Shown here one piece after another: positions 5,850 to 45,719 of a DNA stretch of 64,000 nucleotides. Origin of the DNA: Oscillospiraceae bacterium (GTDB lineage Bacteria > Bacillota > Clostridia > Oscillospirales > CAG-272). Every line of letters starts with the position of its first letter. Positions within the stretch are counted from its first letter, which is position 1. The translations under genes were made by a program, and so were the position numbers. The notes beneath the pieces were generated by a model, which saw only the letters and a list, made by a program, of their open reading frames with translations, ran no database searches and was not told the origin of the DNA. The stretch covers positions 17,619 through 81,618 of the forward strand of contig SVRZ01000005.1 of the NCBI GenBank assembly GCA_015064555.1, in the 5' to 3' direction.

Positions 5850-5981
5850 TTATCCAAGGTCAAGATCCCAGATTCCGTCACTTTCCTCCTTGGGAGTCGT
5901 TTCGGTTCCGGGAGAGGAGGTTATGATATCCTCTGCCGAAAGCTCGATCACTTCAAGCTCGGGGGTATGATACTTTTTCAT
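5850..5981 (-). CDS. small acidic peptide A, 43 aa (MKKYHTPELEVIELSAEDIITSSPGTETTPKEESDGIWDLDLG), unknown function
   Basis: Below the ORF-track cutoff. ATG at 5981 has AAAGGAGA 10 nt upstream, beginning just after the TAA of the 2217-aa gene. A paralog lies at 35994..36122. The N-terminal halves differ mainly at third codon positions or by conservative changes, which is a coding-type pattern. Confidence 0.65.
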   Translation of the reverse strand: MKKYHTPELEVIELSAEDIITSSPGTETTPKEESDGIWDLDLG

Positions 5982-5999
5982 TTTTCATAATCTCCTTTC

Positions 6000-12754: not shown

Positions 12755-12785
12755 TTATGACAGAATTTAACCTATGAGGTGCTTT

Positions 12786-13583
12786 ATGCAATATTTTGAA
12801 AATATCAGAGAACACAACTCGCTTTTTTCCGTAATCAAGCACACAAAGGAACTAAAAAACGATTTTGCCTGCAAGCTTGAGATTCATATACAACCCACCA
12901 TAGAAATGGTGTACGTATCAGACGGAAGGTTCGACCTTCACATTAACGGAAGAACCGAAACGGTTCGCACCGGAGAAATAGGAATAGTTTTCCCCTTCCA
13001 GCCTCACGGATACGAAAGATACTCGGGAAGCGACTATATCAGATTCGATTTTGAATCCGAGCTTGCTATGGATTTTTTTAATTTAAAGCATAACGTAATA
13101 GGAGAGAAATCGGTATTCGCCGCGAGCGAAGTAACGCAATACATAATAAAAAAGCATTTCACAGAATCAAACAACCTCTCAAAGCTTAATATCCAAAGCC
13201 TTCTTTATTCCGCTTTGGCCGATTTTACCGATCAGATCAAGCTCGTTCCTTTGGGAAAGGATAATAACGTTCTGATAAAAGCCATAACCTACATAAGATC
13301 CAATATGGATAAATCCTTGCAGATGAATGACGTTGCAAAAGCGCTGGGTTATAGCGAAAGCTATTTTTCAAGAGCTTTAAATAAAAACGCCGGCTTTGGC
13401 TTTAACACGCTTCTTGCTATGATAAGAATAGAGAGCGCAAAAAAGTTTCTGCGGGAAACCGACAAAACAATTCTCGAAATAGTCCTTGAATGCGGATTCG
13501 GAAGCGAACGCAGCTTCTATAGGCAGTTCAGAGACATAACCGGAGAAACACCGCTGAAATACAGAAATGATCTTTATCAATGA
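12786..13583 (+). CDS. AraC-family transcriptional regulator with N-terminal cupin-type sensor domain, 265 aa
   Basis: The C-terminus (MNDVAKALGYSESYFSRALNK...ILEIVLECGFGSERSFYRQFRDITGETPLKYR) is a double AraC HTH. The N-terminus (IEMVYVSDGRFDLHINGRTETVRTGEIGIVFPFQPHGY) is cupin-like. ATG at 12786 has GAGGTG upstream. Confidence 0.85.
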   Translation: MQYFENIREHNSLFSVIKHTKELKNDFACKLEIHIQPTIEMVYVSDGRFDLHINGRTETVRTGEIGIVFPFQPHGYERYSGSDYIRFDFESELAMDFFNLKHNVIGEKSVFAASEVTQYIIKKHFTESNNLSKLNIQSLLYSALADFTDQIKLVPLGKDNNVLIKAITYIRSNMDKSLQMNDVAKALGYSESYFSRALNKNAGFGFNTLLAMIRIESAKKFLRETDKTILEIVLECGFGSERSFYRQFRDITGETPLKYRNDLYQ

Positions 13584-30148: not shown

Positions 30149-33100
30149 TTATCCGAGATACTTAGATACCGCGGCACTATAGGCAGCAGCATCGCCGTCC
30201 GACGCCGCACAGATCTCTATATCATAGAGGAATACGTTCATCTGAAGAGCGCCTATATTGAAGCGTGCAAGATTGGGAGTATCAAACTGCTGAACTAGCA
30301 CGCCGTTTATATACCAATATGCCTTGCCTTCATTTACAACTATAGCCCACTCAAGCGTAATACCATTGGTAGCATCGTAGATATTAGCGCAGTCGGCATC
30401 GCTTTGTTGTCCGTTATACATATAGCCTGCGCCAAAGGTACCGTTGCTGTCGCTATCCCAGAGCAGGAATCTGCAGCCACTAGCAAAGCTGAACTGAAGA
30501 TGTCCGTTTGTGCCGAACTTTGTAATGTCAAGCTTACCGCTTACAACATAGTTGTTGGTAAGTGCATTTCCCGATGCATCGGTGTAGGTTCTGCCGCTTG
30601 CGGTTATATCGCCGCCCTGGCCGTATTTCTGTATGCTGAGCGCATTTTCAAGATATCTTGCCGCCTCAACAGAATACAAATCTGCATTCTCCGATTTTAC
30701 AAATATCTCAATATTTGAAACAGTAACGTTCATATTCTGCGCGCCGATATTGAATTTATCAAGAGTGGGAGCCGCAAAGATCTTCATAAGCTCGCCGTTG
30801 ATGTACCAATATGCCTTGCCTTCATTCACAACAACTGCCCACTCAAGGATAAGACCGTTGGTGGTATCATAGGTAGCAATCTTTGCCGTGTTCTCATTGG
30901 TGTGCTTACCGTTTTCCTGATATCCTATTCCTATATCTCCCAAACTATCAGAATCCCAGAGGATAAATCTGTTGCCGCTGCCCACAAGGAACTGAAGGTG
31001 CGCATTGTTCTTCTTGAGCTCGGTAATGTTAAGAATACCTCTTACAACGTAGTTGTTGGTGAGCGCTTTTCCGGAAGCATCGGTGAAGGTCTTTCCGTTG
31101 GCGGTTATATTGGAATTATTATCGTAATGCTGCAGGTCAACGCCAAGAGCAGAATATTTCGCTACCTCGGCGTAATAAGCAGCCTCATCCTCTGCCTTTA
31201 CGTAAATCTCAATATCCGAGAACAGAGCATTCATCTGAACAGCGCCTACGATAAAGTACTCAAGATTCGGAGTCGCAAATCTCTTTTCAAGATTGCCGTT
31301 TATATACCAGTACGCCACACCGCTGTTGACGACCACGGCAAAATCAAGAGTAAGTCCGTTGCTCGCATCATAGAGCGTAATGCCGGATTCGGTATCGCTC
31401 ACGTGAGAGTTATTCTCGGTGTAGCCGGCGCCAAGCTTGCCGTCGTTATTGCTGTCCCAGAGAAGGAACCTGTAGCCCGAGCCAAGCCTGATCTGAATAT
31501 AAGGATTATCCTTGCCGATAGCACTGATATCGAGCTTGCCCTTTATTACGTAATTATCGGTAAGATCATCTCCGCTTGCATCGGTGAAGGTCTTGTTGGT
31601 AACAGATACGCAACCCGAGGTCTCAAGGTTTACAACGTCACCCACATAGCGAGCAGCATGAGCGTTGTATGCCGCCACGTCATCCGGGTCGTCCGACTTC
31701 ACGCTGACCTCTACGTCGTAGACAATGGAGTTCGCGTTTTCACCGCCGATAAGGAAGTATGCGGGGGTGTAGGACTCGAACGTATGCACAAGCTGTCCGT
31801 TGATATACCAATAAGCCTTTCCGCTTTCATCGGTTATAACCGCCCAGTTTATAACAAGGCCGTCATTTCCGTCATAAAGAGTTTTTACCGTATTATCGCT
31901 TGCGCTTCCGTTGCCAAGATATCCTGCGGCGAATTTTCCGTCGCCATTTATATCCCAGAAAACGAATCTGTAGTTCTGATGCATTCTGAAATGAACGTAT
32001 ACGTTAGCGCCCGGAGTATAGTGAGTAATAACGAGTTTTCCGCTCGCTACGAAGGGACCGGTAATATCATTGCCGTTTTTATCCTTGTATTTGATTGCCG
32101 AAAGACCGTTGATGTAAGCCGCATCACTGCGAGTGACGCCTCTCGCCTCGTCCAGGGCAAGCTTCATAAGATCGTATGCAACAAGGCTGGGATGCGAAGC
32201 ATCCGATGAGGGATACATATTCTTATTGATGGTTTCGTTATTGCCGTAGAAGATCGGAGTGGTATCAACGTATACCAGCCAATCGGTGCTCTCAGCGAGT
32301 GCCTTTATTGCCGCATTTACCGCAGGAGCCTTAACGAAGGAGGACTCGTAGCGGTTGGAATTCTCATCATCGGCAGTCTTCTTGGGATCAACGCTGAAGT
32401 AATAGATCTTAGCCTCGGGAAGCCTTGCGTGATATTCATTGAACAATGCAGTCAATCTCGCAACGAACTCATCCACGGTAAGAGAGCCGTGATGCATATC
32501 GTTGTGACCGATATGAACTACTATCTCCTTCGGCTCCATAGGATAAACGATACGCTCGGAGGCTATCTCAAGCTGATGTATCTGAGAGGAGGAGAGTCCC
32601 ATAAGGAATGCCTTTTCTCCTGCGAAGTCCTGATAGAAGTCCTTCCAGAAAGGAGGCGTCTCCATCGTGTAGCCGTCAAAGTAAGAGTCACCGACAAAGA
32701 TCGTTGCACCCTTATTCTCTTCCTTTATTATGTTTTCCTCATAGTACTGAATCTTCGTTTCGGCATTTATATTGCCGTTATAGGTCGATACCTTGACCGT
32801 AGCGGTCGCGGTATGATATTCGGTGGTGGCGGTAACAGTTACGTTCACCGCAGAATTGAATATTCCCTTTGCGAATATCTTGCCGTTCTCAACGAATACG
32901 TTGGGGGTATCGGTTGTGTAGGTAACCGAGCCGTTATACCAGGATTCGCTGAATACAGGGATTATATCCTTGCCGGGATAGTTCGAATATATCTCGGTGG
33001 GTGCGGTGAGCGTCATCGTTCCGTATGCATTGGGATCGGGATCCTTAATGCCGCAGAGCGTGCATTTGCCCATCGCAAATTCGTGCTGACAGCTATCGAT

Positions 33101-35776
33101 ATCATTGACCTTATCTCTGTAATCCGCGGCACTCTCGCAATACCTTGCGAAGCGCTCGACAAGCTTTACAAGGTTATCGTTATTCTGAGTCTTTGCCCAT
33201 TCGTAGTAGCACCTGATATGGCAGGAGTCGGACTCTCCATTCACGGTGTAGTCAACCGTTTCTGCCATTTCGTATGCATAGAGCTTTACCTCAACGTACT
33301 TGCCGTTTTCGTCAATGCCCTCCTCTGCCGAAACCGCACTACCATTTATTGAGAATGCAAAGTCGGATGCCGTAAAGCCGTCTGCCAGATAGAATCTGAG
33401 TGCCGGCTTAGCCGTGAGGTTGTAGGTCACGGACTTGATACCGAGAGTGGGCTTATCTGCACTGCCGTTCATCACGGGAGCACTGCTTTCATCATAATTC
33501 TCACCAAGGAGTGCATCGATCCTCGCCATAGCCTCGGCATCGGTCGTGCCAAAGTATGCGTACGCTGCTCTTATGTAAGAAAGAACGTCCTTGACGAGAG
33601 TTTTTTCGAGATCGGTAAGAAGATTGTCATCATCGACGATCTTCTTTGCATACTTCGGAATCGAGAAGGCGAACGTGCCCTTCATTACCTTGCCGCCAAC
33701 GCTGAGTGTTGCAACAAGCCTGATCTCTCTTGCCGCCTCACTTGCTCCGAGCGGAACGGTAACAAGACAGTAGCCGTCCTTTTCGGTAAGAGCCGAAATA
33801 TCAAGAGCCGCACCGTCAAGGCTGATGGCGGTAAGCTCCGGAATGTTCGGAACGTAGATATTGAATACAAGCTCCGAGCCAAGTATGATGCTTGCCTTGG
33901 GAACAAACGTCGATGCCGCCTTCGGAGCAAGTCCGTAAGTCGCGGTGACTCCGTTATCGGATGACTTTACGAATACGAGCTCTCCGCCGTTTACCTCACT
34001 CACAGCCGGCTTTTTCGCCGAAGGTATCTCGAGGGTGGTATAATTGCCGCCCTCAGGCTTTGTTAAGGTGATCGAGGAGCCGGCATTTGCATTCTCCATC
34101 TCCGCGAAAACGATCTGCGAGCCGGAGGTGATGATCTTACCGCCGCTTATTTTAGCGGTGGTCGTACAATGCGCGTCGGTCATATCAAACATATTGAGAG
34201 TATAGGATATTTTCGAAAGATCGAATACGCAATTGTTGAAGGTGATGTTAAGGAACTGCGTGGGATCTGCCGCCGCGAATGAGTTATAGCAGATGAGGTC
34301 GGTTGTGGTCGCACCTTCCGCGAGGGCGATGGTCACTCCGTCGAAGGTGAAGTTGAAGCCATTGCCTCCGGGATATTTGCCACTGGGATTCCAGCTCGAA
34401 AGCTTCATAAGAGCAGTTGAGCCAAGAACAACCTTACCGTTCTTTACTGTAATATTGGTATCGTAAGCAGTCTTTTTCTGCGCCGAGAACATAATTCTGT
34501 CGGTCGAGGTGAACGTAAAGCCGTTTAAATCGAGTGTAACACCGTATGTCTGGCTTAAGTTATTATACTGACTTTCCGCATAGGTGAAATCGCGGCGCAT
34601 AAGGATAACAGAGCCTGCCGCCTTTGAGCTGTGGAGCGCGCTGGCGGTCGCATCCTTAGCGAACAGCCCATATGCACCCACGAAGCTTCCGTTACGGAAC
34701 ACTGCGAAGGGGTATTTATCAACATCCTTATAGCTGCCGGGAATTACACCGTAAGGAGTTATGATCTCGCTGACGGTAAGCTCATATTTATCGGTCGAGC
34801 CCTCCACCTTGGTGAAGCAGACCCTGCTGCCTCCGTCCTCGGTGAGGAAGGTATCCGTGATAGGCTCATAGTCACCCTTTACGGTGAGAGTGGGAAGGCT
34901 GCCGTCAGAGCCGACACCCACAAGAAGACTCTCGTTGCTGTTGCCGTCATAAAGGGTTATATGAGCAAGATCTGCGGTTATTATCTCTCCGCCGTTGATC
35001 CTGACGTCAACGTTGAGCACGTTGTTTCCGTCTGCCGCGGCAAATACCGTCATATTCTTATCCGTTCTGGTATAGCCCGAGAGATCAATAGTGCAATCAT
35101 TTAACGTAATAACCGTTCGGGTGCCGCACGTGCTTGCATTACCCGTCCAGGTGGTGTGAATAAGGTGTCCCCAGAAATCGCCCGTGGTGCCGGCGCTTTC
35201 CGAAACTCCGATGGTTATACCATCGTAGGTCACGTCGAATTTCTTTTCACCCGCATCGGTGCCTGTAAAGATCTGAGTATCAACAAATGCGATCATACCC
35301 ATAAGCATCTTGCCGTTGGTGATCTTTATCTTTGTGGTATAAGACGCCACAGGATAATCAGCTACAAGATCAAGACCTGTATACTCGTTTGTGAAGGTGT
35401 GACCTCCGAGGTCAATAAGTATATTGGTCGCCGTGTTTATTGATGGCGGAGTGCCGTTATTGTAGTTGGTAAAGTCGCGTCTTAAAAGAAGCTGCGCCTC
35501 GTGCTCGGTATGTTCCTCGCCGCTTACCGCATTCTGGAGAGCATATAATGCATCCTTCCAGGTGGAGTAAGCACCAACGAACCGATTCTCGGAGAATACC
35601 GCAAGCGGGAACGCATCTGCATCGGCATATTCATCACCGATAGTACCGTACGTTGTCACAAGATCTGCATCCGAGTTTCCGCTGTCGCTCGCAAGCACGG
35701 GGATAACACCGCATATGCAAAGCGCAACGAAAAGCAAAAGAAATGTCAGACGTCTGATGATTTTATGCTGGTTCAT
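30149..35776 (-). CDS. giant secreted multidomain protein 2 (1875 aa): signal peptide, 2 beta-helix-like modules, shared ~270-aa domain (internal here), Cys knuckle, Ig-like segment, SGNH/GDSL hydrolase, 4 LamG-like repeats
   Basis: Start MNQHKIIRRLTFLLLFVALCICGVIPVLA at 35776 (AGGAAG upstream); the track start at 35842 is an extension. SGNH blocks FVGDSYFDG, HIGHNDM and SDASHPS. Shared domain FVPKASIILGSELVFNIYVP...RFARYCESAADYR. Confidence 0.9.
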   Translation of the reverse strand: MNQHKIIRRLTFLLLFVALCICGVIPVLASDSGNSDADLVTTYGTIGDEYADADAFPLAVFSENRFVGAYSTWKDALYALQNAVSGEEHTEHEAQLLLRRDFTNYNNGTPPSINTATNILIDLGGHTFTNEYTGLDLVADYPVASYTTKIKITNGKMLMGMIAFVDTQIFTGTDAGEKKFDVTYDGITIGVSESAGTTGDFWGHLIHTTWTGNASTCGTRTVITLNDCTIDLSGYTRTDKNMTVFAAADGNNVLNVDVRINGGEIITADLAHITLYDGNSNESLLVGVGSDGSLPTLTVKGDYEPITDTFLTEDGGSRVCFTKVEGSTDKYELTVSEIITPYGVIPGSYKDVDKYPFAVFRNGSFVGAYGLFAKDATASALHSSKAAGSVILMRRDFTYAESQYNNLSQTYGVTLDLNGFTFTSTDRIMFSAQKKTAYDTNITVKNGKVVLGSTALMKLSSWNPSGKYPGGNGFNFTFDGVTIALAEGATTTDLICYNSFAAADPTQFLNITFNNCVFDLSKISYTLNMFDMTDAHCTTTAKISGGKIITSGSQIVFAEMENANAGSSITLTKPEGGNYTTLEIPSAKKPAVSEVNGGELVFVKSSDNGVTATYGLAPKAASTFVPKASIILGSELVFNIYVPNIPELTAISLDGAALDISALTEKDGYCLVTVPLGASEAAREIRLVATLSVGGKVMKGTFAFSIPKYAKKIVDDDNLLTDLEKTLVKDVLSYIRAAYAYFGTTDAEAMARIDALLGENYDESSAPVMNGSADKPTLGIKSVTYNLTAKPALRFYLADGFTASDFAFSINGSAVSAEEGIDENGKYVEVKLYAYEMAETVDYTVNGESDSCHIRCYYEWAKTQNNDNLVKLVERFARYCESAADYRDKVNDIDSCQHEFAMGKCTLCGIKDPDPNAYGTMTLTAPTEIYSNYPGKDIIPVFSESWYNGSVTYTTDTPNVFVENGKIFAKGIFNSAVNVTVTATTEYHTATATVKVSTYNGNINAETKIQYYEENIIKEENKGATIFVGDSYFDGYTMETPPFWKDFYQDFAGEKAFLMGLSSSQIHQLEIASERIVYPMEPKEIVVHIGHNDMHHGSLTVDEFVARLTALFNEYHARLPEAKIYYFSVDPKKTADDENSNRYESSFVKAPAVNAAIKALAESTDWLVYVDTTPIFYGNNETINKNMYPSSDASHPSLVAYDLMKLALDEARGVTRSDAAYINGLSAIKYKDKNGNDITGPFVASGKLVITHYTPGANVYVHFRMHQNYRFVFWDINGDGKFAAGYLGNGSASDNTVKTLYDGNDGLVINWAVITDESGKAYWYINGQLVHTFESYTPAYFLIGGENANSIVYDVEVSVKSDDPDDVAAYNAHAARYVGDVVNLETSGCVSVTNKTFTDASGDDLTDNYVIKGKLDISAIGKDNPYIQIRLGSGYRFLLWDSNNDGKLGAGYTENNSHVSDTESGITLYDASNGLTLDFAVVVNSGVAYWYINGNLEKRFATPNLEYFIVGAVQMNALFSDIEIYVKAEDEAAYYAEVAKYSALGVDLQHYDNNSNITANGKTFTDASGKALTNNYVVRGILNITELKKNNAHLQFLVGSGNRFILWDSDSLGDIGIGYQENGKHTNENTAKIATYDTTNGLILEWAVVVNEGKAYWYINGELMKIFAAPTLDKFNIGAQNMNVTVSNIEIFVKSENADLYSVEAARYLENALSIQKYGQGGDITASGRTYTDASGNALTNNYVVSGKLDITKFGTNGHLQFSFASGCRFLLWDSDSNGTFGAGYMYNGQQSDADCANIYDATNGITLEWAIVVNEGKAYWYINGVLVQQFDTPNLARFNIGALQMNVFLYDIEICAASDGDAAAYSAAVSKYLG
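30152..32116 (-). repeat. four tandem ~160-170-aa jelly-roll (LamG/ConA-like) repeats at the C-terminus of giant 2
   Basis: The recurrent pattern TFTDASG..LT.NYV..GKL.I........LQF....G.RF.LWDS...G..G.GY.....(E/S)GKAYWYING.L...F..P.L..F.IGA..MN....IEI occurs four times to the stop codon. Confidence 0.75.
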
Positions 35777-35798
35777 TTTTTTCTTCCTTTCACAGATA

Positions 35799-35827
35799 AT
35801 TCTAAAAATCGAAGGGTAAAACCGCAA
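35799..35827 (-). promoter_or_regulatory. possible internal promoter for giant 2
   Basis: On the minus strand: TTGCGG (35827-35822), 17-nt spacer, TAGAAT (35804-35799), about 22 nt upstream of the ATG. Confidence 0.35.
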
Positions 35828-35993
35828 ATTGCGAACTTTCATTTACAAATATGTGGTTTTATTTATCGGTCGGTCGTCATGATCCTCGGGCGCGGAAAGC
35901 TTTCCGCTATCCCCGATTCTTTATTAAGCATTATCCGGCACCGATGCAAACAGATCTTCATCCTGTCGCATCTGATTTTTCGTCGCAACGGGA

Positions 35994-36122
35994 TCAAATA
36001 TCAAGATCCCAGATTCCGTCGCTCTCCTCCTTGGGAGTCGTTTCGGTTCCGGGAGAGGAGGTTATGATATCCTCTGCCGAAAACTTTACAATCTCAATTT
36101 CGGGATCAACGTATTTTTTCAT
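35994..36122 (-). CDS. small acidic peptide B, 42 aa (MKKYVDPEIEIVKFSAEDIITSSPGTETTPKEESDGIWDLDI), paralog of peptide A
   Basis: ATG at 36122 has AAAGGAGA 9 nt upstream and lies 34 nt after the TGA of the 2788-aa gene. Below the ORF-track cutoff. 80/82 nt are identical to peptide A over the 3' half. Confidence 0.65.
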   Translation of the reverse strand: MKKYVDPEIEIVKFSAEDIITSSPGTETTPKEESDGIWDLDI

Positions 36123-36156: not shown

Positions 36157-39100
36157 TCAATTTTCAACTCCGATTACAGCACGTCTGTAATCGGCTGCAC
36201 TTTCGCAATACTTAGCGAAGCGCTCTACGAGCTTTACAAGATTATCGTTGTTCTCTGACTTTGCCCATTCATAGTAGCATCTGATGTGGCAGGAGTCAGA
36301 CACGCTGCCTACCGTGTATTCAACAGTGCCTGCCATCTCGTATGCATAGAGGACTACCTCAAGATATGATCCGTCTGCATCCGAGCCCTCGGTTGCGCTG
36401 ACTTCATTTCCGTTTATACTAAACGTGAAGTCATCCGGCTCGAAGCCGTCTGCCAGATAGAATCTGACAGCAGGCTTCGCGGTGAGGTTATAGGTAACCG
36501 CACTTACGCCAAGGGTGGGCTTTTTCTCGCTCCCGCTCATCGCAGGAGCCTGTGTTTCGTCATAGTCTTCACCGAGGATCGCGTCTATCCTGTTGATAGC
36601 CGCCTCATCCTCTGTGCCAAAATATGCATATGCTGCTTTGATGTACGAAAGAACGTTCTTTACAAGAGTCTTTTCGGTCTGGGAGATCAATTCATCCGCA
36701 AGAACCTTCTCTGCATATCTCGGAATCGAGAAGGTGAAGGTTCCCTTCATATCCTTCTCGCCTGTGCTGAGGGTTACAACAAGCAGAATATCTCTTGCTG
36801 CCTCTTTTGCGCCGAGATTTACGGATACAAGATAATATCCATCCTTCTCGGTAAGAGTGCCGATATCGACGGTCTCGCCGTCAAGAGTAAGAGCTACAAG
36901 GCTCTCTGCCTTGGGAACGTAGATATTGAAGACAAGCTCCGAGCCGAGAGTGATGCTCGCCATAGGAACGAACTCTCCGGCAGAGGTGTCCGCAAGCCCG
37001 TAAACGGTGTAATCACCGTCACTTCCCGTCCTGACGAATACCTTAGCTCCGCTCACGGTTGATATAGCGCCGGATATTGCCGTGCCGTCCTTGGACATAA
37101 GCACAAGATCGGCAGCGAATACTACAGAGCTGTCCTCGTTGGTAAGATCATCCGATATGGAGATTTTACCGAAGCCGCTTCCCTTTATAACGCATCCCGA
37201 TACGGTAACGGTAACGTCGATGAGTCCCGACGGATCGTTTACGTCGAAGACGACGAGCTTCTCAAGGTCGCCCGTATCTATGGTGCAATTTTTAAGGCTG
37301 AGGTTCGCATAGGTATTCACCGCATTGGACTGATTCTCAACCGCACTGAAGAGTGCCGAGGGAGCATATCCGGGAAGAATGCCTATATTTACGTTCTCAA
37401 GCGTTATGTTGAAGTTCTTGTTGCCGGGATAGTTTCCGTTTGCCGCCCAGCTGTCAAATAAGACTATCGGGTTTTTACCTGCGAGAAGTGTTCCGTTTAT
37501 AACGGTGACCGAGCTGTTATAATTCGTCTTCTTCTGTGCATAGAGCCAAGCGTTAGATCCGGTCTGCTTCATCGAAACGGTGAAGCCGCCGAGGTCGATG
37601 GTGATCGATCCGTTTGTCTGGCTGAGATTGTTATACTTATTCTCGGTATAATCAACGTCGCGTCGAAGAAGTATTACCGAGCCGTCCGACTTTGACCTAT
37701 GAAGCGCACTGTCCTTGGCATCCAGACCGAATATCGCGGTTGCGAACACGAACTTTCCGCCACGGAATACGATATAGGGATAATCCTCAGCCGAGGTATA
37801 TCTCGCAGGGATATATCCGTACTTCGTCCACTCCGAGGGAGCGAGCCTGTATACACCGTTGGTCTCGGGGACGAAGCTTCCCTCTCCTCCCTCTATAGGC
37901 AGGGCGAGCGTGCCGGGATCGGCAGAGGACTCCAATGCAAGATGCTTGCCATCCGAGCCCTTACCGAAGTAAAGGGTTGAGCCGCAGGCGGTGCTGAGAG
38001 TATAGATGGTCACGTTTGTAAGAGTATTTACCTTTATCTTACCGCCGTTTATTCTGACGGTGGCATTTATCATTACAGACGAGGTGTTGCTGAAGTTTAA
38101 TACATTGATCGGCGAGGTGGGAGCCACGGTCTTGAAATCAAACGTACATCCGTTGAAGATGTATTCGATAGGTGCGGTTCCCGAGGTCGTCTTTGCGGTA
38201 ACGGGAGCATTTACGAGATTTTGGGCAGTTGCACCGCTCATAAGACCAAAGGTCACGTTATCAAACTGCCATATGCTGGTTTTGCCGGCTATGGCATTAT
38301 TACCGACCGTATCGTTGCATATCGAATTGATAACAGCCGCCTTTCCAACGTAAAGTCCGCCATTCTTCACTATGAACGTGCTTGGGAATATCTTTTCATC
38401 GCCCGAGTCGCCCCAGCCCTTGGAGGTGTAATCGAAGAAGGGTTTATCCGAGGATGCATTCTGGTAAAGCGAATTTCCGTCGAGGTCTATAATAACGGTT
38501 CCCTGCGCCTGAGCAAGATTGTTGAAATACTCACCGTCCATAACGGTGTAATCGCGTCTGAGTATTATGATTGCGGTAGCCTCGTTTGCACCGTAGGTCT
38601 TATTGACGGGATCCCATACGTTGGGCTTGAGAACGGTGTATACTGCTCCGCTCATCGCACCGCCGCTTTGTGCACCGTAAAGCTTGGTGTATGCGCCTAC
38701 CCAGCTATACGTGCCGTTCACACACTTGAGGACCACGAAGGGATAGGTCTCAACCGATGCATATGCGCCGGGAATAGCTACTCCGTAAGAGGTCGTAAGC
38801 GAGGTGAGAGTATAAAGCGTTTCGGTGCTTCCCGTGCTCGTCTTGGCATATACCATATTACCCTTATCGGTAGGAACGTCACCCGAGGAAACGCTTGCGC
38901 CGTTGGGCACGTAAAGCTCGGTATAATTACCGTTCGTATCGGGAAGGAAGGTTACGGACGAGCCGTAGGTCGACTCTGTAGCAAGAAGCTGGGATGCCGT
39001 CATAGAGGTCGCGGTTATCTTTCCGCCCGTGACGGTTACGGTGTTCTTTGTCCAATTGCCCGAGGGAACTGCCGCATTGAAGAGCTTTGCACCCGAGGGA

Positions 39101-42100
39101 GCATTGGTTACAAGGTCAAAGGTACAGTTATTGAAGTTTACGAAGAAGGGTCCGGGCTGGGTACAGGTTCCGCTCTTGCTTCCATAAGAGAACAAGAGAT
39201 CCGTGGCGGTTGCACCTGCCGCATATCCGAAATCAACTCCCTCGAAATTCAGGGTGAAGTGCTTGCCTGCGATAGCGCCGTTTCCTACGCTTTCCCAGGT
39301 GGAGAGCTTCATTATCGACTGATCGAGCGCCTTAAGCTTACCGTTCTTTACCGTTATTGTGGAATAGAACATCTTTTCGTCGCCCGAGCCGCTCCAGCCC
39401 TTGGTCTGAAGTCTGCCGAAGATGCCGTAGGTATCCGCGGAGCCCTCGGAAAGAGTGTGTCCACCGAGATCAACGGTTACGGTACCCTGGATCTGAGCCG
39501 CGTTTTCAAAGTTATCTGACGAAGTAGTGGTGTAGTCGCGGCGCATCAGCACTACCGCAGAAATCTCATTTTCGCCGTAGGTCTTATTGACGGGATCCCA
39601 TACGTTCGGTGTGTACATATAGGTCTTCGCCCCATCCATCGCCTGCCTGAAGGTCTTATATCCCTTATAGAAGCCCACATCCGAGGTGAACACCACAAAG
39701 GGATAGGTCTGTACCGAAGCGAATTCTGCCGAAATAGGACCGTATTCGGTCATGTTGGTATTTTCCTTAAGCTCGTAAACGGTATCCGAAGCACCCGAGC
39801 TTACCTTCGAGAAGTAATAAGCCTTTCCGTCTGCCATGTAATCGGTATAGGCGAGGGTGACATCGTTCGGAAGGACGTAGGAAAGATAACTGCCGTCGCT
39901 TCCCTTACCGAAGCTTACAGACGAGCCGTAGTTATCGGTTCCGTAATAGACCGGAACTACCTTCGAGGTGCTGTTCGCAACTATCTTACCGCCGTTTACC
40001 TCTATGGAAAGATTTATGAACTTGCCGTCGGTCGCGGTAGTGAAGAGTCTCATTGCATTTGCCGAGGACTTGGTTCTCAGATCGAAGGTACAATCGTTAT
40101 AAACCGTCCTGAACCGTGCGGGAAGAATCGCGCCGCTTGCATTATCAAAGTGAGTAAGAAGGCTTATCGAATTTACGTTATCGTTAACACCAAAGGTAAC
40201 GTTATCATAGATAAGAGTTATAAGTTTGCCCGCTATAGCTCCGCCGCCTATGCTGTCCCAGGTGTTAAGGTTTACTATGCCCTGGTTATAGGCAAGCATC
40301 GTTCCGTTTCTGAACTCAAGCGTTACGGGGAACAGATCATTGCCTGCCGCACCGCTGAAGCCCTTTGCCGTTGCATTGATAAGCGGCTTGGTTACACTTC
40401 CTGCGGAGAGAGTATATCCTCCGAGATCCACAACAGCCTCACCCTGAATATGAGCGAAGTTATCGAAGTATTCACCGCTTATGAGATTGTAATCTCTTCT
40501 CATAACGGCATATGCCTTGAGAGGAGTGTTACCGTAGCTCGTTCCGTCCCAGGGATTGATAAGATAGTTCTTTATCGCGCCCATAACGCCGCCCGAGCCG
40601 TTCGAGCCGAGCCAGCTGTTATACGCACCGATGAACATTCCTTTTTCATTAAAGAGAACGAAGGGATATGCAACCGGGTCGGAATACTCCTCGGGAACAA
40701 GACCGTACGGAGTTGCAAGATCGCTTTTCTGTATGGTATAGGTCGCGATATTCTTGCTGTGTGAGTCGTATGCAAAGGACTGTATTTCTCCGTCCTTACT
40801 TACACCTGTTGCAGGAAGCTTGTTTCCGATGGAGCTGTGAAGGGTGGTATATGCACCGTTCTCATCCGCAATGAAGCTTGCCGACGTAAGAGAATCGAAC
40901 AGGCCGATACCTAGGAACTTATCGGTGCTTATGCTTCCGCCCGCCATCTCATAGCTTACCGCGAGGGGATATTCTCCGGAGGAGAAGAGAGAAACGGGAA
41001 CCTCGGTGTTATATCCGAAGCGGAAGTCAACCTCCACGTTATCCATACTGATATTTACCGTAGCCGCGCTCGCAGACTCAATGGTCTTTGCAGTCATAAG
41101 CTCGCGCAGATCGGAGCCTTTTTTGTTGACTATTACGAGATCCTCAAGAACAATATTGAAGATCTTGCCCTTGCCGCCCGAGGTCGATCCCGCGTAGCCG
41201 ACAAGAGGAGCATCGGAAAGATAGATGCTTCCGTTCTTTACCGTTATATTTGTGGTGCCGGTCTTGTTTGCGGCTGCGTGAATGAGAGGATTCTCGGAAT
41301 CGGTATAGATCTTATATCCGTTAAGATCAAGAGTCACAGAGCCGAGAGCCGCCCAGCCGGTATAATCGTCCGAATCGGTAAGGGTATAATTCTTGTTAAG
41401 GGTAACCGTTCCACCGTTGCCCGCTGCCGCGAGCGCCGCAGAGAGGGTGGGATAATAGCTTTCGCCTACCTTGAATGCATCGGTCGTGCCGTTATTCTTG
41501 TAGTCGCCGCCGCGGACACCGAGAACGAGAGCCGCAGCATTCTTATCGGATAGGGTAATATCGGTGACCGTTTCGATCACGGTGAGATCGCTCACGTAGA
41601 TGGGCGACTCATCCGAGCCCGTTGCACCGAAGCGAACAGTGAGCTTCTTCGCCGCAAGAGCCTCCTCGCCGTACATAGGCTCGTATACAACGTAATCAAA
41701 GCCTACTGTCATCCACTCGCCGGGCTTGGTCATAAAGTTGTAGCTCGGAACGTTATGGTCGTAAGCACCGTTTGCCTTTCCGCTTGCATCGGCATACGCA
41801 CCGTTAAGAGACATCTGAATAACTCTTGCATCGGTATCGTATACTCTCATGGTTATTCTGTATCTTCTGCCGATATCCGCATCGGTAAGAGCCTTTCCGC
41901 CGAGGGCGGAGTTACTCACGAATGCCATAGTGGCATTTGAATAGAAGGTTTCGTACGCGTACTGCTGTTTTCCGTTCGCATCAACGTTGATGCCTACCTT
42001 CATCTCTGCCGCCTCGGTTCCGTCGGGAGCGGTGGAGATGGTCACAGGTACGTACTTCTGAAGAGTTATCGAGGAAAGAGCCGACTGTGCGTTGAATTTA

Positions 42101-44523
42101 AGCTCATACTTATTCTCGCCTGCAGTCTTTGCGGGGGAAAGAAGGAATACAAGACGTGTGCTCGCATCAGCCTCGAGCACGTATGCGGAAACGTCTACCT
42201 CATAGTATCCGTCACCACTGAGACTTACAGAGCCCAGAAGCTCACCGCGCACGGATGCATCGGGATCTGCCTCATTGTAGCTCTCGACAGCATAAAGCTC
42301 GGCGATATTTGCCGCATTTCCGTCAGCATGGAATCTTATACGGGCATCTGCCGCATCGGAACTATCCGGAGCTGTAATGATAAGGTAAGAGCCGAGAGCT
42401 CCCTTTACCACAGTCATATCGGAGGTTACCTCCGCCTCTGTGTAGAAGGAAGCGGTATATTCCTCACCAATAGCCACACCGTTATCTCCCGCGAAGGTAG
42501 CAGGTACGGTGAGGATATATTCGGTATCCGAAAGGAGAGTATCGGGGGTGAAGGTCCATTCAAGGCCGCCGCGAGCGGAGCTCCAGCTACCGCTTGCCAC
42601 ATCACCGCCGGACGAGATAAGAGTTATCTTCTCTATATCGGATGCAAGGACAGCACCTGAGAATTTGATGGTTATAGGATCTGTGGTTCCCATATTGCCA
42701 TTTCCCGCCGCGGGAATGGTATGGATGACCTTTACCCGATCGTTTTTCAAATAATAGTTTGCAAATGCAAACATAGCATCGTAGGTATCGAAGCCGTACT
42801 GATAGTCGGGACCGTATGCAAAGGTATGTCCGAGATCGACTATAACATACATAGAAGGGATGTCGAGAGATTTGGTCACCTCAGCAAAGAGATTGTTGGT
42901 AACCGAGAAGTCATCGCGCAGATGGAGCGCAGAGAATACAGGGGCGTGCCCCTCGGTTATATCCTCATACTGGCTGCCGTTAGATGCATATATCCAGCTG
43001 GCATAGGAGAGTATCTCGTGAGTTACACCGTTTTTATCGGTATAGGTAAGCCAGGGCTGAAGCTCGCCGCCGTCTATCGTAACACCGTTCTTTACGTAGT
43101 CCTCGCGGATACCGTTCTGATAACGGGTTTCATCCCTATGTCCCGCGAACTGACGCTTGGAGGTGTAGTCATTGATGCGCGCATCAATGAGCGCCTCAAG
43201 CTCTGCCTTTGTGTATAGAGATGCGTCCTCGACCGTGTGATTTCTGACCTCTGCCTCACCGAGGAAGGTGAACCATCCACCCTTGGAGTTACCGAAGACA
43301 CCTATCTTTTCAACATCAAAGGAATACGTACCGGGATCTGTATACGTAAGATAACGCAAGAATCTCATAGCCGCGGTGTTTATCTTCTTATCGTTGTACA
43401 GATGAAGTCCGTAGTTCATACGGTCGCCCGTGAGAGCGCCCTCTGAGGTTCTGCCGTCGTAATACTTCCAGTAATCCGACTGTGCCATAGGCTGATAGAG
43501 ATAATCAAACACGGCACCCGCATATCCGTTAAACAAGAATCCGTTATGCTGAGGACGGAGTCCCGAGCTGGTACTTGCCGTCGAGAGGTACTCACTAGAG
43601 GAGGCAAGAACCGCGATCGGAACGGGATCGAGCGGCTTATCCACCGTGGTCGTCGGATAAACAACGTGCATATAGAGATTCAGGTCTATTGGAGTGCCGT
43701 CAGGTCCTACGCAATCGGTGACGTCAAGCGCAAGAGTGTGCGTAAGCTTGACATAATTTGCGTTCTCTGCCGTTGCCGCTACGGGATTCTTGAGAGCCGA
43801 GTCGCTGTACCACTGAGGTGCAGATCCGTCAAGTCCGTTCTGCGTTGCCTTCTGCTCTCCGAGAGAATTGCGCCAGTAAACAGACTTATCTCTATACCAT
43901 CCGCGAAGGTCGGTATTCCAGTTTTCAACTATCTTTTCGAGCGTTCCGTCCGCACCGTGCTTGTCAGCCTCCCAGAATACCTTTCCGTAGAGAAGATCGT
44001 AGCCTGCGGGTACTATGAAATTGTCGCTGTACGAGCCCGAGGGAAGATAGGTCTTATCGGTGAAGAATCCACCGCTGGCAAACTGAACTCTGATAGTCTG
44101 CGCAGACCAATCAAGTGCGGGTGAGACCGCCTTCTCGTGATTCTTGTAGTCAAGAACCGAAACTATGTAGCCGCGTTCGAGCATAGACTCTATTATCTCG
44201 GTATCGGTTTTCGAGCCTATCCTTTCGGTTTTGGTATTTACCACGTAAATCACAAGAGGCGTGCCGTTATATCCGGTCTTAGCCTTACCGTGAGTGCCGT
44301 AATCGTAGAACGTGGTCACCTCGACGGGTATGCCTATATATCCGTCGTTTGATTGCGCTACCGTATTGCCTATCTGCTTTTCTGCAAATTTCTCTTTTAT
44401 GGCAGCAGACGCATCATTCTCGTCCGAGCTGCCGGCAAAGACAGTAACGGCAAATATTGCCGCCACAACGAGAACAAGCGCAAGCAGAATAGCTAACGTG
44501 CGCGATAGCTTTCTTTTTTTCAT
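36157..44523 (-). CDS. giant secreted multidomain protein 3 (2788 aa): signal peptide, alpha/beta-hydrolase-like head, Big_5 (SbsA-Ig)-like domain, beta-sandwich region, 5 beta-helix-like modules, shared C-terminal domain
   Basis: Start MKKRKLSRTLAILLALVLVVAAIFAVTVFA at 44523 (GGAGAGAG upstream); the track start at 44649 is an extension. Nucleophile elbow GVFGNSKGGW (G-x-S-x-G). Ig-like segment TIPAAGNGNMGTTDPITIKFSGAV...YILTVPATFAGDNG. C-terminal FVPMASITLGSELVFNIYVP...RFAKYCESAADYR. Confidence 0.9.
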   Translation of the reverse strand: MKKRKLSRTLAILLALVLVVAAIFAVTVFAGSSDENDASAAIKEKFAEKQIGNTVAQSNDGYIGIPVEVTTFYDYGTHGKAKTGYNGTPLVIYVVNTKTERIGSKTDTEIIESMLERGYIVSVLDYKNHEKAVSPALDWSAQTIRVQFASGGFFTDKTYLPSGSYSDNFIVPAGYDLLYGKVFWEADKHGADGTLEKIVENWNTDLRGWYRDKSVYWRNSLGEQKATQNGLDGSAPQWYSDSALKNPVAATAENANYVKLTHTLALDVTDCVGPDGTPIDLNLYMHVVYPTTTVDKPLDPVPIAVLASSSEYLSTASTSSGLRPQHNGFLFNGYAGAVFDYLYQPMAQSDYWKYYDGRTSEGALTGDRMNYGLHLYNDKKINTAAMRFLRYLTYTDPGTYSFDVEKIGVFGNSKGGWFTFLGEAEVRNHTVEDASLYTKAELEALIDARINDYTSKRQFAGHRDETRYQNGIREDYVKNGVTIDGGELQPWLTYTDKNGVTHEILSYASWIYASNGSQYEDITEGHAPVFSALHLRDDFSVTNNLFAEVTKSLDIPSMYVIVDLGHTFAYGPDYQYGFDTYDAMFAFANYYLKNDRVKVIHTIPAAGNGNMGTTDPITIKFSGAVLASDIEKITLISSGGDVASGSWSSARGGLEWTFTPDTLLSDTEYILTVPATFAGDNGVAIGEEYTASFYTEAEVTSDMTVVKGALGSYLIITAPDSSDAADARIRFHADGNAANIAELYAVESYNEADPDASVRGELLGSVSLSGDGYYEVDVSAYVLEADASTRLVFLLSPAKTAGENKYELKFNAQSALSSITLQKYVPVTISTAPDGTEAAEMKVGINVDANGKQQYAYETFYSNATMAFVSNSALGGKALTDADIGRRYRITMRVYDTDARVIQMSLNGAYADASGKANGAYDHNVPSYNFMTKPGEWMTVGFDYVVYEPMYGEEALAAKKLTVRFGATGSDESPIYVSDLTVIETVTDITLSDKNAAALVLGVRGGDYKNNGTTDAFKVGESYYPTLSAALAAAGNGGTVTLNKNYTLTDSDDYTGWAALGSVTLDLNGYKIYTDSENPLIHAAANKTGTTNITVKNGSIYLSDAPLVGYAGSTSGGKGKIFNIVLEDLVIVNKKGSDLRELMTAKTIESASAATVNISMDNVEVDFRFGYNTEVPVSLFSSGEYPLAVSYEMAGGSISTDKFLGIGLFDSLTSASFIADENGAYTTLHSSIGNKLPATGVSKDGEIQSFAYDSHSKNIATYTIQKSDLATPYGLVPEEYSDPVAYPFVLFNEKGMFIGAYNSWLGSNGSGGVMGAIKNYLINPWDGTSYGNTPLKAYAVMRRDYNLISGEYFDNFAHIQGEAVVDLGGYTLSAGSVTKPLINATAKGFSGAAGNDLFPVTLEFRNGTMLAYNQGIVNLNTWDSIGGGAIAGKLITLIYDNVTFGVNDNVNSISLLTHFDNASGAILPARFRTVYNDCTFDLRTKSSANAMRLFTTATDGKFINLSIEVNGGKIVANSTSKVVPVYYGTDNYGSSVSFGKGSDGSYLSYVLPNDVTLAYTDYMADGKAYYFSKVSSGASDTVYELKENTNMTEYGPISAEFASVQTYPFVVFTSDVGFYKGYKTFRQAMDGAKTYMYTPNVWDPVNKTYGENEISAVVLMRRDYTTTSSDNFENAAQIQGTVTVDLGGHTLSEGSADTYGIFGRLQTKGWSGSGDEKMFYSTITVKNGKLKALDQSIMKLSTWESVGNGAIAGKHFTLNFEGVDFGYAAGATATDLLFSYGSKSGTCTQPGPFFVNFNNCTFDLVTNAPSGAKLFNAAVPSGNWTKNTVTVTGGKITATSMTASQLLATESTYGSSVTFLPDTNGNYTELYVPNGASVSSGDVPTDKGNMVYAKTSTGSTETLYTLTSLTTSYGVAIPGAYASVETYPFVVLKCVNGTYSWVGAYTKLYGAQSGGAMSGAVYTVLKPNVWDPVNKTYGANEATAIIILRRDYTVMDGEYFNNLAQAQGTVIIDLDGNSLYQNASSDKPFFDYTSKGWGDSGDEKIFPSTFIVKNGGLYVGKAAVINSICNDTVGNNAIAGKTSIWQFDNVTFGLMSGATAQNLVNAPVTAKTTSGTAPIEYIFNGCTFDFKTVAPTSPINVLNFSNTSSVMINATVRINGGKIKVNTLTNVTIYTLSTACGSTLYFGKGSDGKHLALESSADPGTLALPIEGGEGSFVPETNGVYRLAPSEWTKYGYIPARYTSAEDYPYIVFRGGKFVFATAIFGLDAKDSALHRSKSDGSVILLRRDVDYTENKYNNLSQTNGSITIDLGGFTVSMKQTGSNAWLYAQKKTNYNSSVTVINGTLLAGKNPIVLFDSWAANGNYPGNKNFNITLENVNIGILPGYAPSALFSAVENQSNAVNTYANLSLKNCTIDTGDLEKLVVFDVNDPSGLIDVTVTVSGCVIKGSGFGKISISDDLTNEDSSVVFAADLVLMSKDGTAISGAISTVSGAKVFVRTGSDGDYTVYGLADTSAGEFVPMASITLGSELVFNIYVPKAESLVALTLDGETVDIGTLTEKDGYYLVSVNLGAKEAARDILLVVTLSTGEKDMKGTFTFSIPRYAEKVLADELISQTEKTLVKNVLSYIKAAYAYFGTEDEAAINRIDAILGEDYDETQAPAMSGSEKKPTLGVSAVTYNLTAKPAVRFYLADGFEPDDFTFSINGNEVSATEGSDADGSYLEVVLYAYEMAGTVEYTVGSVSDSCHIRCYYEWAKSENNDNLVKLVERFAKYCESAADYRRAVIGVEN
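36976..40707 (-). repeat. four tandem ~320-aa protein modules inside giant 3 (YG-x-x-P...YPF-V-V/L-F starts), preceded by one divergent copy
   Basis: Module starts YGLVPEEYSDPVAYPFVLF (Tyr codon 40707), YGPISAEFASVQTYPFVVF (39744), YGVAIPGAYASVETYPFVVL (38787) and YGYIPARYTSAEDYPYIVF (37821), giving periods of 963, 957 and 966 nt. Internal motifs recur: VDLGG.TLS, TVKNG.L, FNNCTFDL, VTV.GGKI. Confidence 0.7.
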
Positions 44524-44605
44524 TTTTCTCTCTCCTTTTATAATTTTACTTGACTCTAAGTAGAATAAGTTCGTGATATCATTATACACGCGTAAAGAAA
44601 AAAAG

Positions 44606-44637
44606 TATGACAAAAGCACGCATATCTTATGACAAAA
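44606..44637. promoter_or_regulatory. direct repeat TATGACAAAA x2 (22-nt register) in the giant-3/AraC-2 divergent region, candidate AraC-type operator
   Basis: Exact 10-mers at 44606-44615 and 44628-44637, upstream of the giant-3 start on its promoter side. The function is inferred only. Confidence 0.3.
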
Positions 44638-44774
44638 CTTTAGGTGCATACAGTTGTATAGTCAAATAAAACAAAAGGAAATACAGAAAATTGTTGCTTT
44701 TTAACAAAAAGCCGCCTGTTATATTTGATACAGGGATAATTCACCGGGGCGCTCTGAAAAAGTTAAGACAAAAC

Positions 44775-44803
44775 TTGACATATGTTCTTAGCGGTGGTAT
44801 AAT
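44775..44803 (+). promoter_or_regulatory. sigma-A-type promoter of AraC regulator 2
   Basis: TTGACA (44775-44780), 17-nt spacer, TATAAT (44798-44803). Confidence 0.5.
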
Positions 44804-44831
44804 GAAGAAAAAGGCACGAAAGGAGTGTCAT

Positions 44832-45719
44832 ATGCTGCAGATACAGACCTCAAATTGCTTTAGCGAGGGCACACTGCGCTCCACCACGAAAATAGGCAGA
44901 TATGCTATAGGAAATCACATACACCAGAACACCGAGATCGTATTTGTAAAAGAGGGCGAGATAGACGTTACTATAGACGGAAGAAAAGAGAGAGCACGGA
45001 CAAACGACGTTATAATAATAGCCCCATTCTCGGTTCATTCGTTTCACACGGAGAAGTACGTAAACGCCTGGATAAGCGTTTTCTCAAACAATTTCATATC
45101 CGATTTCATAGGTGTTGACGGCTCATATTTCTACGGTGAGCGCGCAGTTTTCACCCCCACGGAGGAGCTTCGCAATTACTTTTGCGGAAGGCTCTTTGAC
45201 ACGGCGGAGGATATAATTGCTCCCGCCGAGGCACAGGTCAGAAAAATAAAGGCCATGCTCTACCCCATATTTGAGGAATACACCGCGTCGGTCCCTCAGA
45301 CACGCACACCCCCGAAAAGCAATGCACTCTCCGCCGCCCTGACGTATATGCAGAAGCATTATAAGGAGAATCTTTCGCTCACCGACGTTGCAAGAAGCTT
45401 AGGATATAATCCCACCTATCTTTCGCACACGCTCGGCGAGCTCGGAGGAATAAATTTCAGAACGCTTCTCAATTCGTTCCGCGTAGAGGAAGCGAAGCAG
45501 ATGCTCCTATCGAAAAAGCACAAGATGATAGATATCGCTATGGAATGCGGCTTCAGCTGTGAGCGCTCGTTTTACCGCGCATTTATGGCAATAACCGGAG
45601 TAACGCCGGGAGAATACGTTGAGTCCCGTCCGGATGCCGAATTTATCACCGTCGGCGGTGATAAGACCGTCTACAATATGGGTGTGCGCCTGCCGATAGA
45701 CGACCTGAACGGTCATTGA
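44832..45719 (+). CDS. AraC-family transcriptional regulator with cupin-type sensor domain, 295 aa (paralog of 12786..13583)
   Basis: ATG at 44832 with AAGGAG 6 nt upstream; the track start at 44691 is an extension. Cupin part HIHQNTEIVFVKEGEIDVTIDGRKERARTNDVIIIAPFSVHSF. C-terminal AraC HTH LTDVARSLGYNPTYLSHTL...IDIAMECGFSCERSFYRAFMAITGVTPGEY. Confidence 0.85.
   Translation: MLQIQTSNCFSEGTLRSTTKIGRYAIGNHIHQNTEIVFVKEGEIDVTIDGRKERARTNDVIIIAPFSVHSFHTEKYVNAWISVFSNNFISDFIGVDGSYFYGERAVFTPTEELRNYFCGRLFDTAEDIIAPAEAQVRKIKAMLYPIFEEYTASVPQTRTPPKSNALSAALTYMQKHYKENLSLTDVARSLGYNPTYLSHTLGELGGINFRTLLNSFRVEEAKQMLLSKKHKMIDIAMECGFSCERSFYRAFMAITGVTPGEYVESRPDAEFITVGGDKTVYNMGVRLPIDDLNGH

Follow-up and report, generated by a model that had tools for sequence, protein, structure and literature searches.

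Why should two short genes that lie 30 kb apart share a patch of almost identical DNA when the related sequence on either side of it has diverged? The question is raised by a 64,000-nucleotide (nt) stretch of an Oscillospiraceae bacterium genome (GenBank assembly GCA_015064555.1, contig SVRZ01000005.1, positions 17,619 to 81,618), referred to here as the window, which carries two small peptide genes on its minus strand, pepA and pepB. pepA (5850..5981, minus strand) encodes a peptide of 43 residues, MKKYHTPELEVIELSAEDIITSSPGTETTPKEESDGIWDLDLG, and pepB (35994..36122, minus strand) a peptide of 42 residues when counted from its MKKY start; gene callers begin pepB at an upstream ATG at 36140, which gives 48 residues. 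A Shine-Dalgarno-like AGGAG belongs to each gene. The shared patch is an 82-nt block, found in pepA at 5860..5941 (minus strand; second base of codon 14 to second base of codon 41, encoding SAEDIITSSPGTETTPKEESDGIWDL) and in pepB at 36001..36082 (minus strand; +41 to +122 from the ATG). We present evidence that this block is very probably the footprint of a short, recent gene conversion between paralogous peptide genes, superimposed on strong purifying selection at the protein level.

Direct comparison of 5860-5941 with 36001-36082 confirmed the identity of 80 of the 82 bases reported in the initial annotation. The two differences (A at 5880 versus G at 36021 and T at 5883 versus C at 36024, plus strand) read GAA AGT versus GAG AGC in the sense of the mRNA and are both synonymous. 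The central 36-mer of the block is present in exactly two copies in the window, with none expected from 100 shuffles. In a global alignment of 5600-7400 with 35750-37560, scored for identity per 40-nt window, values over the block were 88-100%, as compared with 55-92% (mostly 55-80%, with about 70% typical) in the homologous DNA encoding an adjacent C-terminal domain and about 45% in the non-homologous flanks. The block was therefore rightly singled out as lying far above its surroundings, and its clear excess over homologous flanking DNA is what a gene-conversion tract should show. A 40-nt sample of the domain-coding DNA (6118-6157 versus 36284-36323), annotated with 13 mismatches, contains 12 by our count. 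The 5' parts of the two genes, encoding the leader, are indeed diverged (60% identity).

Comparison of codons gives the same picture. A scan of species-representative genomes yielded 64 peptide loci from about 10 metagenome-assembled genomes (MAGs) of uncultured Clostridia/Eubacteriales, from which 63 distinct blocks were compared; pairs within a genome have on average 77% block nucleotide identity and 54% identical codons at conserved residues. Between pepA and pepB, codons for the same amino acid are identical at 23 of 25 positions in the block, 2 of 6 in the leader and 114 of 179 (64%) in the adjacent domain. The probability of at least 23 identical codons among 25 is 0.0014 at the rate of the adjacent domain and 5e-5 at the family-wide within-genome rate of 54%. 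Synonymous differences occur at a proportion (pS) of 0.11 within the block, as against about 0.96 in the leader, and the pair ranks in the top 1% of within-genome pairs for block identity. Two antisense open reading frames (ORFs) of 93 and 100 residues (5645-5926 and 35765-36067, both plus strand) cross the blocks and have a C-terminus in common, ...QDPRFR.(F/S)PPWESFRFRERRL; the resemblance is a mirror effect of the identical block and gives no evidence of a gene.

A further comparison involves two additional paralogs from the same samples as pepA and pepB, designated C (L075-80; P0012, followed by a cellulase-like gene) and D (L081-86; P0013), with pepA and pepB as A and B. Across spacer and leader (about -90 to +40 from the ATG), B, C and D hardly differ, and at all 42 informative sites between -73 and +37 A stands alone against the other three. 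The following 28 nt, +41 to +68 (TTTCGGCAGAGGATATCATAACCTCCTC; 36055..36082, minus strand, equal to 5914-5941 in pepA), are identical in A-D and hence uninformative. Between +69 and +101 the grouping switches: all four informative sites (TCT versus TCG, AAG versus AAA, GAG versus GAA, and AGx versus AAC) unite A and B against C and D. At two sites beyond, +102 and +123, A again stands alone against B, C and D. Sites at which B resembles A or C number 3/42 before the block and 6/1 inside it (Fisher test, p = 2.7e-5, post hoc). With the extra paralogs included, the signal is thus incongruent across the borders of the tract, as it should be after gene conversion.

pepB is accordingly a gene of C/D type that contains between 33 and 82 nt of A-type sequence. 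The minimal conversion tract, 36022..36054 (minus strand; +69 to +101), holds the four sites that unite A with B, and the maximal pepA-type tract, 36001..36082 (minus strand), is bounded on its 5' side by a site unique to B at +40 and on its 3' side by the site at +123 that separates A from B, C and D. These results favor the first of the two explanations that the initial annotation had offered, recent gene conversion limited to this patch, since the 5' flank and leader of pepB group with C and D and the patch groups with pepA. The tract alters residue 35, which is Asn in C and D and Ser in A and B.

We propose that purifying selection on the peptide would keep stretches of 20-30 nt identical among the paralogs and so permit short conversion tracts of the RecA type. 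RecA-type homologous recombination is the probable mechanism, and the 28-nt stretch identical in all four paralogs would be a likely homology anchor at the 5' side. One such tract would recently have overwritten part of pepB with A-type sequence and become fixed in the sampled population, with pepA or an A-like copy as the putative donor and pepB as the recipient, a direction assigned by parsimony only.

The pepB tract is one of several gene-conversion tracts in the peptide family. Identity is 96-100% between C and D from -400 to +60, 90-98% between A and C from -341 to -190, and 94-100% between B and both C and D from -91 to +34. A comparable identity restricted to the core is seen among neighboring copies on one contig of another MAG (L001, L002, and L023). 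The regions coding for the C-terminal domain (6003-6839 and 36160-36999 in the window; L075 and L081) are also mosaic, B being A-like relative to C between about -643 and -431. Among bacterial paralogs, such as tufA/tufB, rRNA operons and surface-protein gene families, both gene conversion and concerted evolution are known. As in conversion of the tufA/tufB type, we observe a short, non-reciprocal patch of near-identity within diverged paralogs, a switch of signal at its borders and several patches in the family. Unlike those systems, the pepB tract is very short (33-82 nt) and sits in a 43-codon gene whose protein constraint itself supplies the homology anchors. No evidence was found in the peptide family for programmed variation from silent cassettes.

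Several observations weigh against gene conversion as the origin of the block or limit its force. The A-type patch rests on four informative sites, and its breakpoints were picked post hoc. A simple GENECONV-like permutation test, of the kind recommended with the initial annotation, identified highly significant mosaic fragments for B-C, B-D, C-D, and A-C (p ≤ 0.0008) but did not single out the A-B block, the best A-B fragment lying outside it (p = 0.05); the test was not informative for the A-B pair because protein constraint leaves few variable sites in the block. Identity of codons in the flanking domain is already 64%, so the contrast is milder than the raw nucleotide identity would imply. 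The donor may be a paralog outside the sample and not pepA, and no strain with an unconverted pepB was found, all six pepB assemblies being identical. P0019, considered as a possible unconverted pepB, was rejected because it is a locus C allele from the end of a contig.

We also weighed three other explanations of the block. In one, no conversion took place: the modules are old duplicates, and the block diverged more slowly than its flanks through amino-acid constraint and codon bias. This would suit a core that is nearly invariant as protein and the codon identity of 64% already seen at conserved residues in the flanks. However, amino-acid constraint does not protect synonymous sites, and paralog pairs with identical cores fall to the 54% codon and 77% nucleotide averages given above. 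Moreover, the C/D-type flanks and A-type core of pepB require recombination, and we consider slow divergence improbable. Alternatively, the identity could be an artefact of repeat-induced chimerism in a metagenome-assembled contig. The family is multicopy, one contig (L129) begins inside the repeat with a mixed allele, and the protein P0145 looks chimeric at a common AEIEIVK, all of which would fit such an origin. Yet the pepA and pepB loci have been recovered unchanged, each between its unique flanks, from several goat-gut-type metagenomes in which the same species occurs (4 independent assemblies for pepA and 6 for pepB, made with different pipelines), and the patch is internal and below the typical k-mer length of assembly. 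This recurrence excludes an assembly artefact, and we attach next to no weight to that explanation. The L129 allele (L129:1-161) is a paralog C allele at the contig start with the pepB-type T at +40 (Phe14) and GGA for GGG; it reflects a further micro-conversion or else a join made within the repeat during assembly. P0145 (401 residues, ending in the peptide) was rejected as a natural fusion: a full-length relative, P0242, lacks the peptide, so P0145 is probably a chimera at the common AEIEIVK.

The third explanation is that selection on the mRNA or DNA itself holds the block identical, as the initial annotation had also suggested; candidates are a regulatory CCUCC...GGAGG hairpin, an internal Shine-Dalgarno-like pause site and a binding site for a protein or small RNA. 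AAGGAGG and a complementary CCUCC do lie within the block, and identity in the block is far beyond that of the flanks. However, the minimum-free-energy fold omits the CCUCC/GGAGG stem, and the stability of that fold is ordinary (-25.2 kcal/mol, z = -1.2; 29 of 200 shuffles fold equally well). RNAalifold applied to the 63 distinct blocks returned an empty consensus structure. Only 58% of cells retain an intact stem. Its individual pairs survive in 6-62 of the 63 sequences (the middle pair in 6) with no compensatory pattern; for the candidate structures overall, 58-65% of cells are paired, again with no compensatory changes. The GGAGG arm is missing even from paralogs C and D of this species, which have AAAGAAGAA in place of AAGGAGGA. 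Paralogs with identical core peptides differ in codons throughout the block, and synonymous sites of the core are saturated across the family (pS 0.66 within genomes and 0.74 between). A search of the window against Rfam gave no match. Given a core that hardly varies as protein, saturation at its synonymous sites and the lack of any conserved RNA structure, we reject selection at the RNA or nucleotide level; a conserved RNA element is ruled out by the family-wide sequence comparison, and we regard this explanation as largely refuted and highly improbable. Gene conversion between paralogs is the reading that we adopt.

What are the genes in which the tract lies? A protein search returned 60 relatives of 41-65 residues, all unnamed, in which D18, I20, S23, G25, T26, E27, T28, G36, I37, W38, D39, and L40 are invariant, as is the motif DIIT[ST]SPGTET...DGIW. 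Three MAGs carry at least 21, 20 and 10 copies. Over the 63 distinct copies the ratio of nonsynonymous to synonymous divergence (dN/dS) of the core (codons 18-40) is 0.04-0.06, in line with the selected peptide core suggested at the outset. Of 51 copies, 41 have a Shine-Dalgarno-like motif, and at 51 loci a long ORF ends a median of 20 nt upstream of the peptide gene. On the strength of the homologues with their invariant motif, the low dN/dS, the Shine-Dalgarno-like motif and the gap of about 20 nt, we conclude that pepA and pepB are real, translated small genes whose core is under strong purifying selection as protein. Searches of the peptides against Pfam, NCBIfam, and PDB sequences gave sub-threshold leader matches only, and a literature search for the motif strings found no relevant paper; the family is undescribed, lacks a Pfam or NCBIfam model and is named in none of the sources. 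Variants of the core (TTPKEDN...WDF, TPWYEEN...WDL/WEV, and TTPKEES...WDL) are mostly genome-specific, and one JAZONS copy (L021) differs from the other JAZONS copies in being of a TPWYEES type that is otherwise typical of JAZRDI.

Each of the two peptide genes follows a gene for a giant secreted protein. pepA starts 18 nt past the stop codon of giant A (6000..12653, minus strand; 2217 residues, secreted, with an N-terminal signal peptide), and pepB starts 34 nt past that of giant B (36157..44649, minus strand; 2830 residues, secreted, with a signal peptide and a Big_5 domain). On the 3' side, pepA is followed by an intrinsic terminator (5722..5790, minus strand), a long hairpin and then a U-run (-42.7 kcal/mol, z = -6.9 versus shuffles), and pepB by the gene of a third giant, C (30149..35842, minus strand; 1897 residues). 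The three giants have in common a domain of roughly 280 residues, which is C-terminal in A (coded at about 6003-6839) and B (about 36160-36999) and internal in C (about 32987-33838), the domains of B and C being 66 and 76% identical to that of A. In giant C a GDSL lipase domain and four repeats, each of about 170 residues, lie beyond the domain; no peptide gene comes after giant C, and pepB instead lies about 150 nt upstream of it. Searches with the conserved domain found no Pfam, NCBIfam or PDB sequence match. Its AlphaFold2 model (predicted local distance difference test score 92) comprises an immunoglobulin (Ig)-like sandwich, a helical linker, a second Ig-like sandwich and a C-terminal helical hairpin, and Foldseek comparison of the model with the PDB gave only generic matches to two Ig domains with a helical linker (such as IsdB/IsdH and myomesin; template modeling score about 0.2), none of which points to a function.

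The arrangement extends beyond the window. Wherever upstream DNA is available, the ORF preceding the peptide gene nearly always ends in a homologue of the C-terminal domain (30-53% identity). In our reading the peptide gene is co-transcribed with the gene for the giant secreted protein and is probably also coupled to it in translation. A read-through or frameshift fusing giant A to pepA was considered and rejected: the two share a frame but are separated by two in-frame stops, and the gaps at other loci are not multiples of three. AraC-family regulators lie on the plus strand at 12774..13583 (cupin and HTH_18 domains), divergent from giant A, and at 44691..45719, divergent from giant B; the divergent arrangement of giant A is seen again in other loci. 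Ten further contexts preserve a constant order of AraC regulator, giant protein, peptide and then unrelated convergent genes, with giants of 1,000-3,400 residues that contain few or no Pfam domains (GDSL, GDPD, LamG, and Big_5). In an all-against-all census of neighboring ORFs, giants and AraC regulators were the only recurrent families. A radical SAM/SPASM protein of 287-297 residues is encoded directly upstream of the AraC regulator of one module (L087:6184-7047 and L088:1-810); as it was found in no other locus, it was rejected as a maturase of the peptide. In a related organism (L097/L098), truB, an addA-like helicase gene and alaS adjoin a single AraC-giant-peptide module, and in the window the same three genes (632-5636 and 44691-48600) flank about 40 kb containing three giant genes, two peptide genes and sugar-utilization genes; this bracketed segment appears to be an expansion hotspot for giant-peptide modules.

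A more distant relationship connects the peptides to peptides made ribosomally and modified post-translationally (RiPPs). Searching 1.8 billion representative proteins with the peptide profile identified at least 586 clusters (50% identity) at E ≤ 1e-3, with the N-terminal consensus MKKYxxPEhEhhEhxxxD[VI]ITTSxG and C-terminal tails that vary widely and in some members comprise only 7-10 residues. Distant members with other tails still follow large proteins bearing the C-terminal domain. A second context is formed by human-gut contigs (L112-L128) with one or two Cys-rich precursors per cluster, e.g. MEKYAKAQMEVIEFEAEDVITTSGCNG..., together with a TetR regulator, an HprK/ScmC-like protein, a radical SAM/SPASM maturase (451 residues, TIGR04463-like, 6.7e-37), an S26-like peptidase, an ABC exporter and an NTP_transf_5 protein. 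The N-terminal roughly 25 residues of these precursors (M[EK]KYxxxxhEhIEFxxEDVITTSxG) are homologous to those of the window peptides and score 27-33 bits against the window-type profile, and the maturases of these clusters resemble TIGR04463, Clo7bot and CefB-type enzymes. Unlike these precursors, which have a Cys-rich core and are encoded between the maturase and the S26-like peptidase and ABC exporter, the window peptides are free of Cys, have no such enzymes nearby and each lie behind a giant gene. P0241 matched the window-type profile at 43 bits (E = 2.7e-6 in 1.8e9 proteins). At locus L094, the window-type profile gives 43 bits with a 57-residue member, upstream of which lies the 3' end of a further ORF with an uncharacterized product. 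Downstream, after a terminator, come genes for an acyltransferase, an ABC exporter, a lipoprotein, an HprK-like protein, a PqqD protein and an S26-like peptidase; this locus is an ambiguous exception among the loci that lack maturation enzymes. From the profile matches to cluster precursors, with which weak leader-only matches to a lasso peptide model (PadeA) and a sactipeptide model (StsA) agree, we conclude on sequence grounds that the window peptides have an N-terminal half homologous to the leaders of bona fide RiPPs.

Resemblance to lasso peptide precursors is partial. A lasso leader is defined by YxxPxL at -17 to -12 and Thr at -2 (PMC10368454). The window peptides share a YxxPxL-type leader motif (Y4-x-x-P7-x-L/I9) with Firmicute precursors of the paeninodin family and with candidates from rumen Butyrivibrio and Bacillus (PMC7533575), and like lasso precursors (PMC10368454) they have a small hydroxylated residue near the end of the leader, a Gly followed by Asp/Glu eight residues on and a bulky aromatic residue in the tail. 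Within the PGTET subfamily this pattern, which is a pattern only, is close to universal: G25 in 64 of 64 copies, E/D at +8 in 63 and a tail Trp in 64. They differ from lasso precursors in the spacing of motif to cleavage site, which departs by four residues (the Tyr falls at -21 when G25 is taken as +1), and in having Ser for Thr at -2 (64 of 64, with T/S at -3). The NCBIfam model lasso_PadeA scored 12.4 bits against a cutoff of 27, over residues 2-14 only, two published Firmicute lasso precursors gave no score against the family profile, and neither a lasso cyclase (Asn-synthetase-like) nor a B1/B2 leader peptidase was present in the Pfam tables of the neighbors or among recurrent neighbor families.

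Another precedent is offered by systems of the prochlorosin type, in which many dispersed precursor genes are served by one maturase. The peptide family likewise has tens of precursor-like genes per genome, with a conserved leader, scattered around the chromosome. In prochlorosins the C-terminal part is hypervariable, whereas that of window-type peptides is nearly invariant within a genome and every copy is tied to a giant gene; no maturase was identified for the peptide family.

We speculated on two functions for the peptides. They could be dispersed RiPP precursors that are matured and exported by one set of enzymes encoded elsewhere in the genome, the N-terminal 24 residues serving as a leader bound by a PqqD-type recognition element and PGTET...GIWDL as the core. 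The matches of the window-type profile to P0241 and to Cys-rich precursors in radical SAM/SPASM clusters, the weak PadeA and StsA leader matches and the lasso-compatible combination of YxxPxL, G25, acidic +8 and tail Trp (PMC10368454, PMC7533575) would agree with this. However, homologues of the RiPP-cluster proteins are absent from the window and from about 100 giant-type loci (about 860 kb), bar a generic ABC ATPase match, Cys occurs in none of 64 cores, and many giant-linked relatives have tails of just 7-10 unremarkable residues. The departures at -2 and -21 and the failure of published Firmicute lasso precursors to score count against it as well, and we put it forward tentatively, as a possibility that falls short of being probable. 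Alternatively, the peptide could be an unmodified partner of the giants, made at about 1:1 by translational coupling and binding the C-terminal domain, for example as an added β-strand, to act as an export or assembly chaperone, a subunit or a reporter of giant-protein expression to the AraC regulators. Such a role would account for a linkage between the peptide gene and the ORF of the C-terminal domain that is strict and ancient across the 51 loci, for domain homology that is detectable even with distant peptide subfamilies, and for AraC as the sole other recurrent neighbor; moreover, it is the N-terminal, β-strand-like segment and not the tail that is best conserved across the superfamily. 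It sits poorly with a peptide that has no signal sequence beside giants with Sec signal peptides, and with a domain model of complete Ig-like domains in which no strand is obviously missing. We judge it somewhat unlikely as it stands. A third reading is a function of some other kind.

A broader proposal, which we offer as speculative, is that the peptide genes and the C-terminal domain form an undescribed two-gene module that uncultured gut Clostridia carry in tens of copies per genome and in which a peptide of RiPP-leader type is made in lock-step with each giant surface protein. In one version the genes would be dispersed precursors of one modified peptide, possibly a G25-E32 macrolactam or lasso-like product, that reports or coordinates the expression of the giant proteins. 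In the other, a leader-like domain would have been recruited, without modification, to partner the C-terminal domain or the AraC regulator. If this proposal is correct, short conversion tracts would help to keep all cores compatible with a single partner.

Repeats and spacers of other kinds are found near the peptide genes of other genomes. In several MAGs, an element of about 125 nt with a terminator-like hairpin, CCCCTGACCACTwCCGTGTCG...CGTGGGACTTCGCTTCnAAAAACG..CGTTTTnGTGCGCTCACC, lies just 3' of peptide genes (L028:448-612; L036:1788-1968; L064:1-108; L026 at ~4200-4300; L031 at ~4350-4460; L034:4490-4600 and 4690-4790). It is followed in L028, L036, and L064 by a 5'-truncated second copy of the peptide core and in L034 by truncated copies of a tRNA gene, and a Rfam search of the element returned no family, the sole match being the tRNA in L034. 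It resembles a small insertion element by which the 3' end of conserved multicopy targets is duplicated or replaced. In L011 (4147-4227) and L035 (~4029-4223), truncated core fragments (…GIWDFDLA* and …GIWDFDIS*) occur right after full peptide genes, behind a different spacer with the hairpin CCCCTTCCCCCGCTGGGGAAGG, and may be footprints of unequal recombination at the conserved core. Finally, the spacer between giant and peptide genes is conserved in many JAFQPR and JAZONS copies (L008, L009, L011, L012, L015, L018-L020, L023, L027, L028, L033, and L035) about 45 nt upstream of the peptide start, where it translates as ...MQNSKCRMQNEKNE...; in these copies the peptide begins MSY and not MKKY. 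A related NSKCRM stretch is present in JAZRDI copies and P0054. This spacer may be a regulatory or repeat sequence.

The block shared by pepA and pepB shows that a patch of near-identity between paralogs needs no explanation at the level of RNA and can be the outcome of an ordinary process within a multigene family. It was the synonymous sites of homologues, together with extra paralogs, that told gene conversion from nucleotide-level selection. The block has also exposed an unannotated family of small genes through which giant secreted proteins of Clostridia from gut and rumen are tied to leader peptides of the RiPP type. Should the peptides be matured in trans, or should they bind the C-terminal domain, they would represent a new way to couple a peptide product to the expression of a surface protein, and would also provide a handle on the biology of these very large, uncharacterized proteins.

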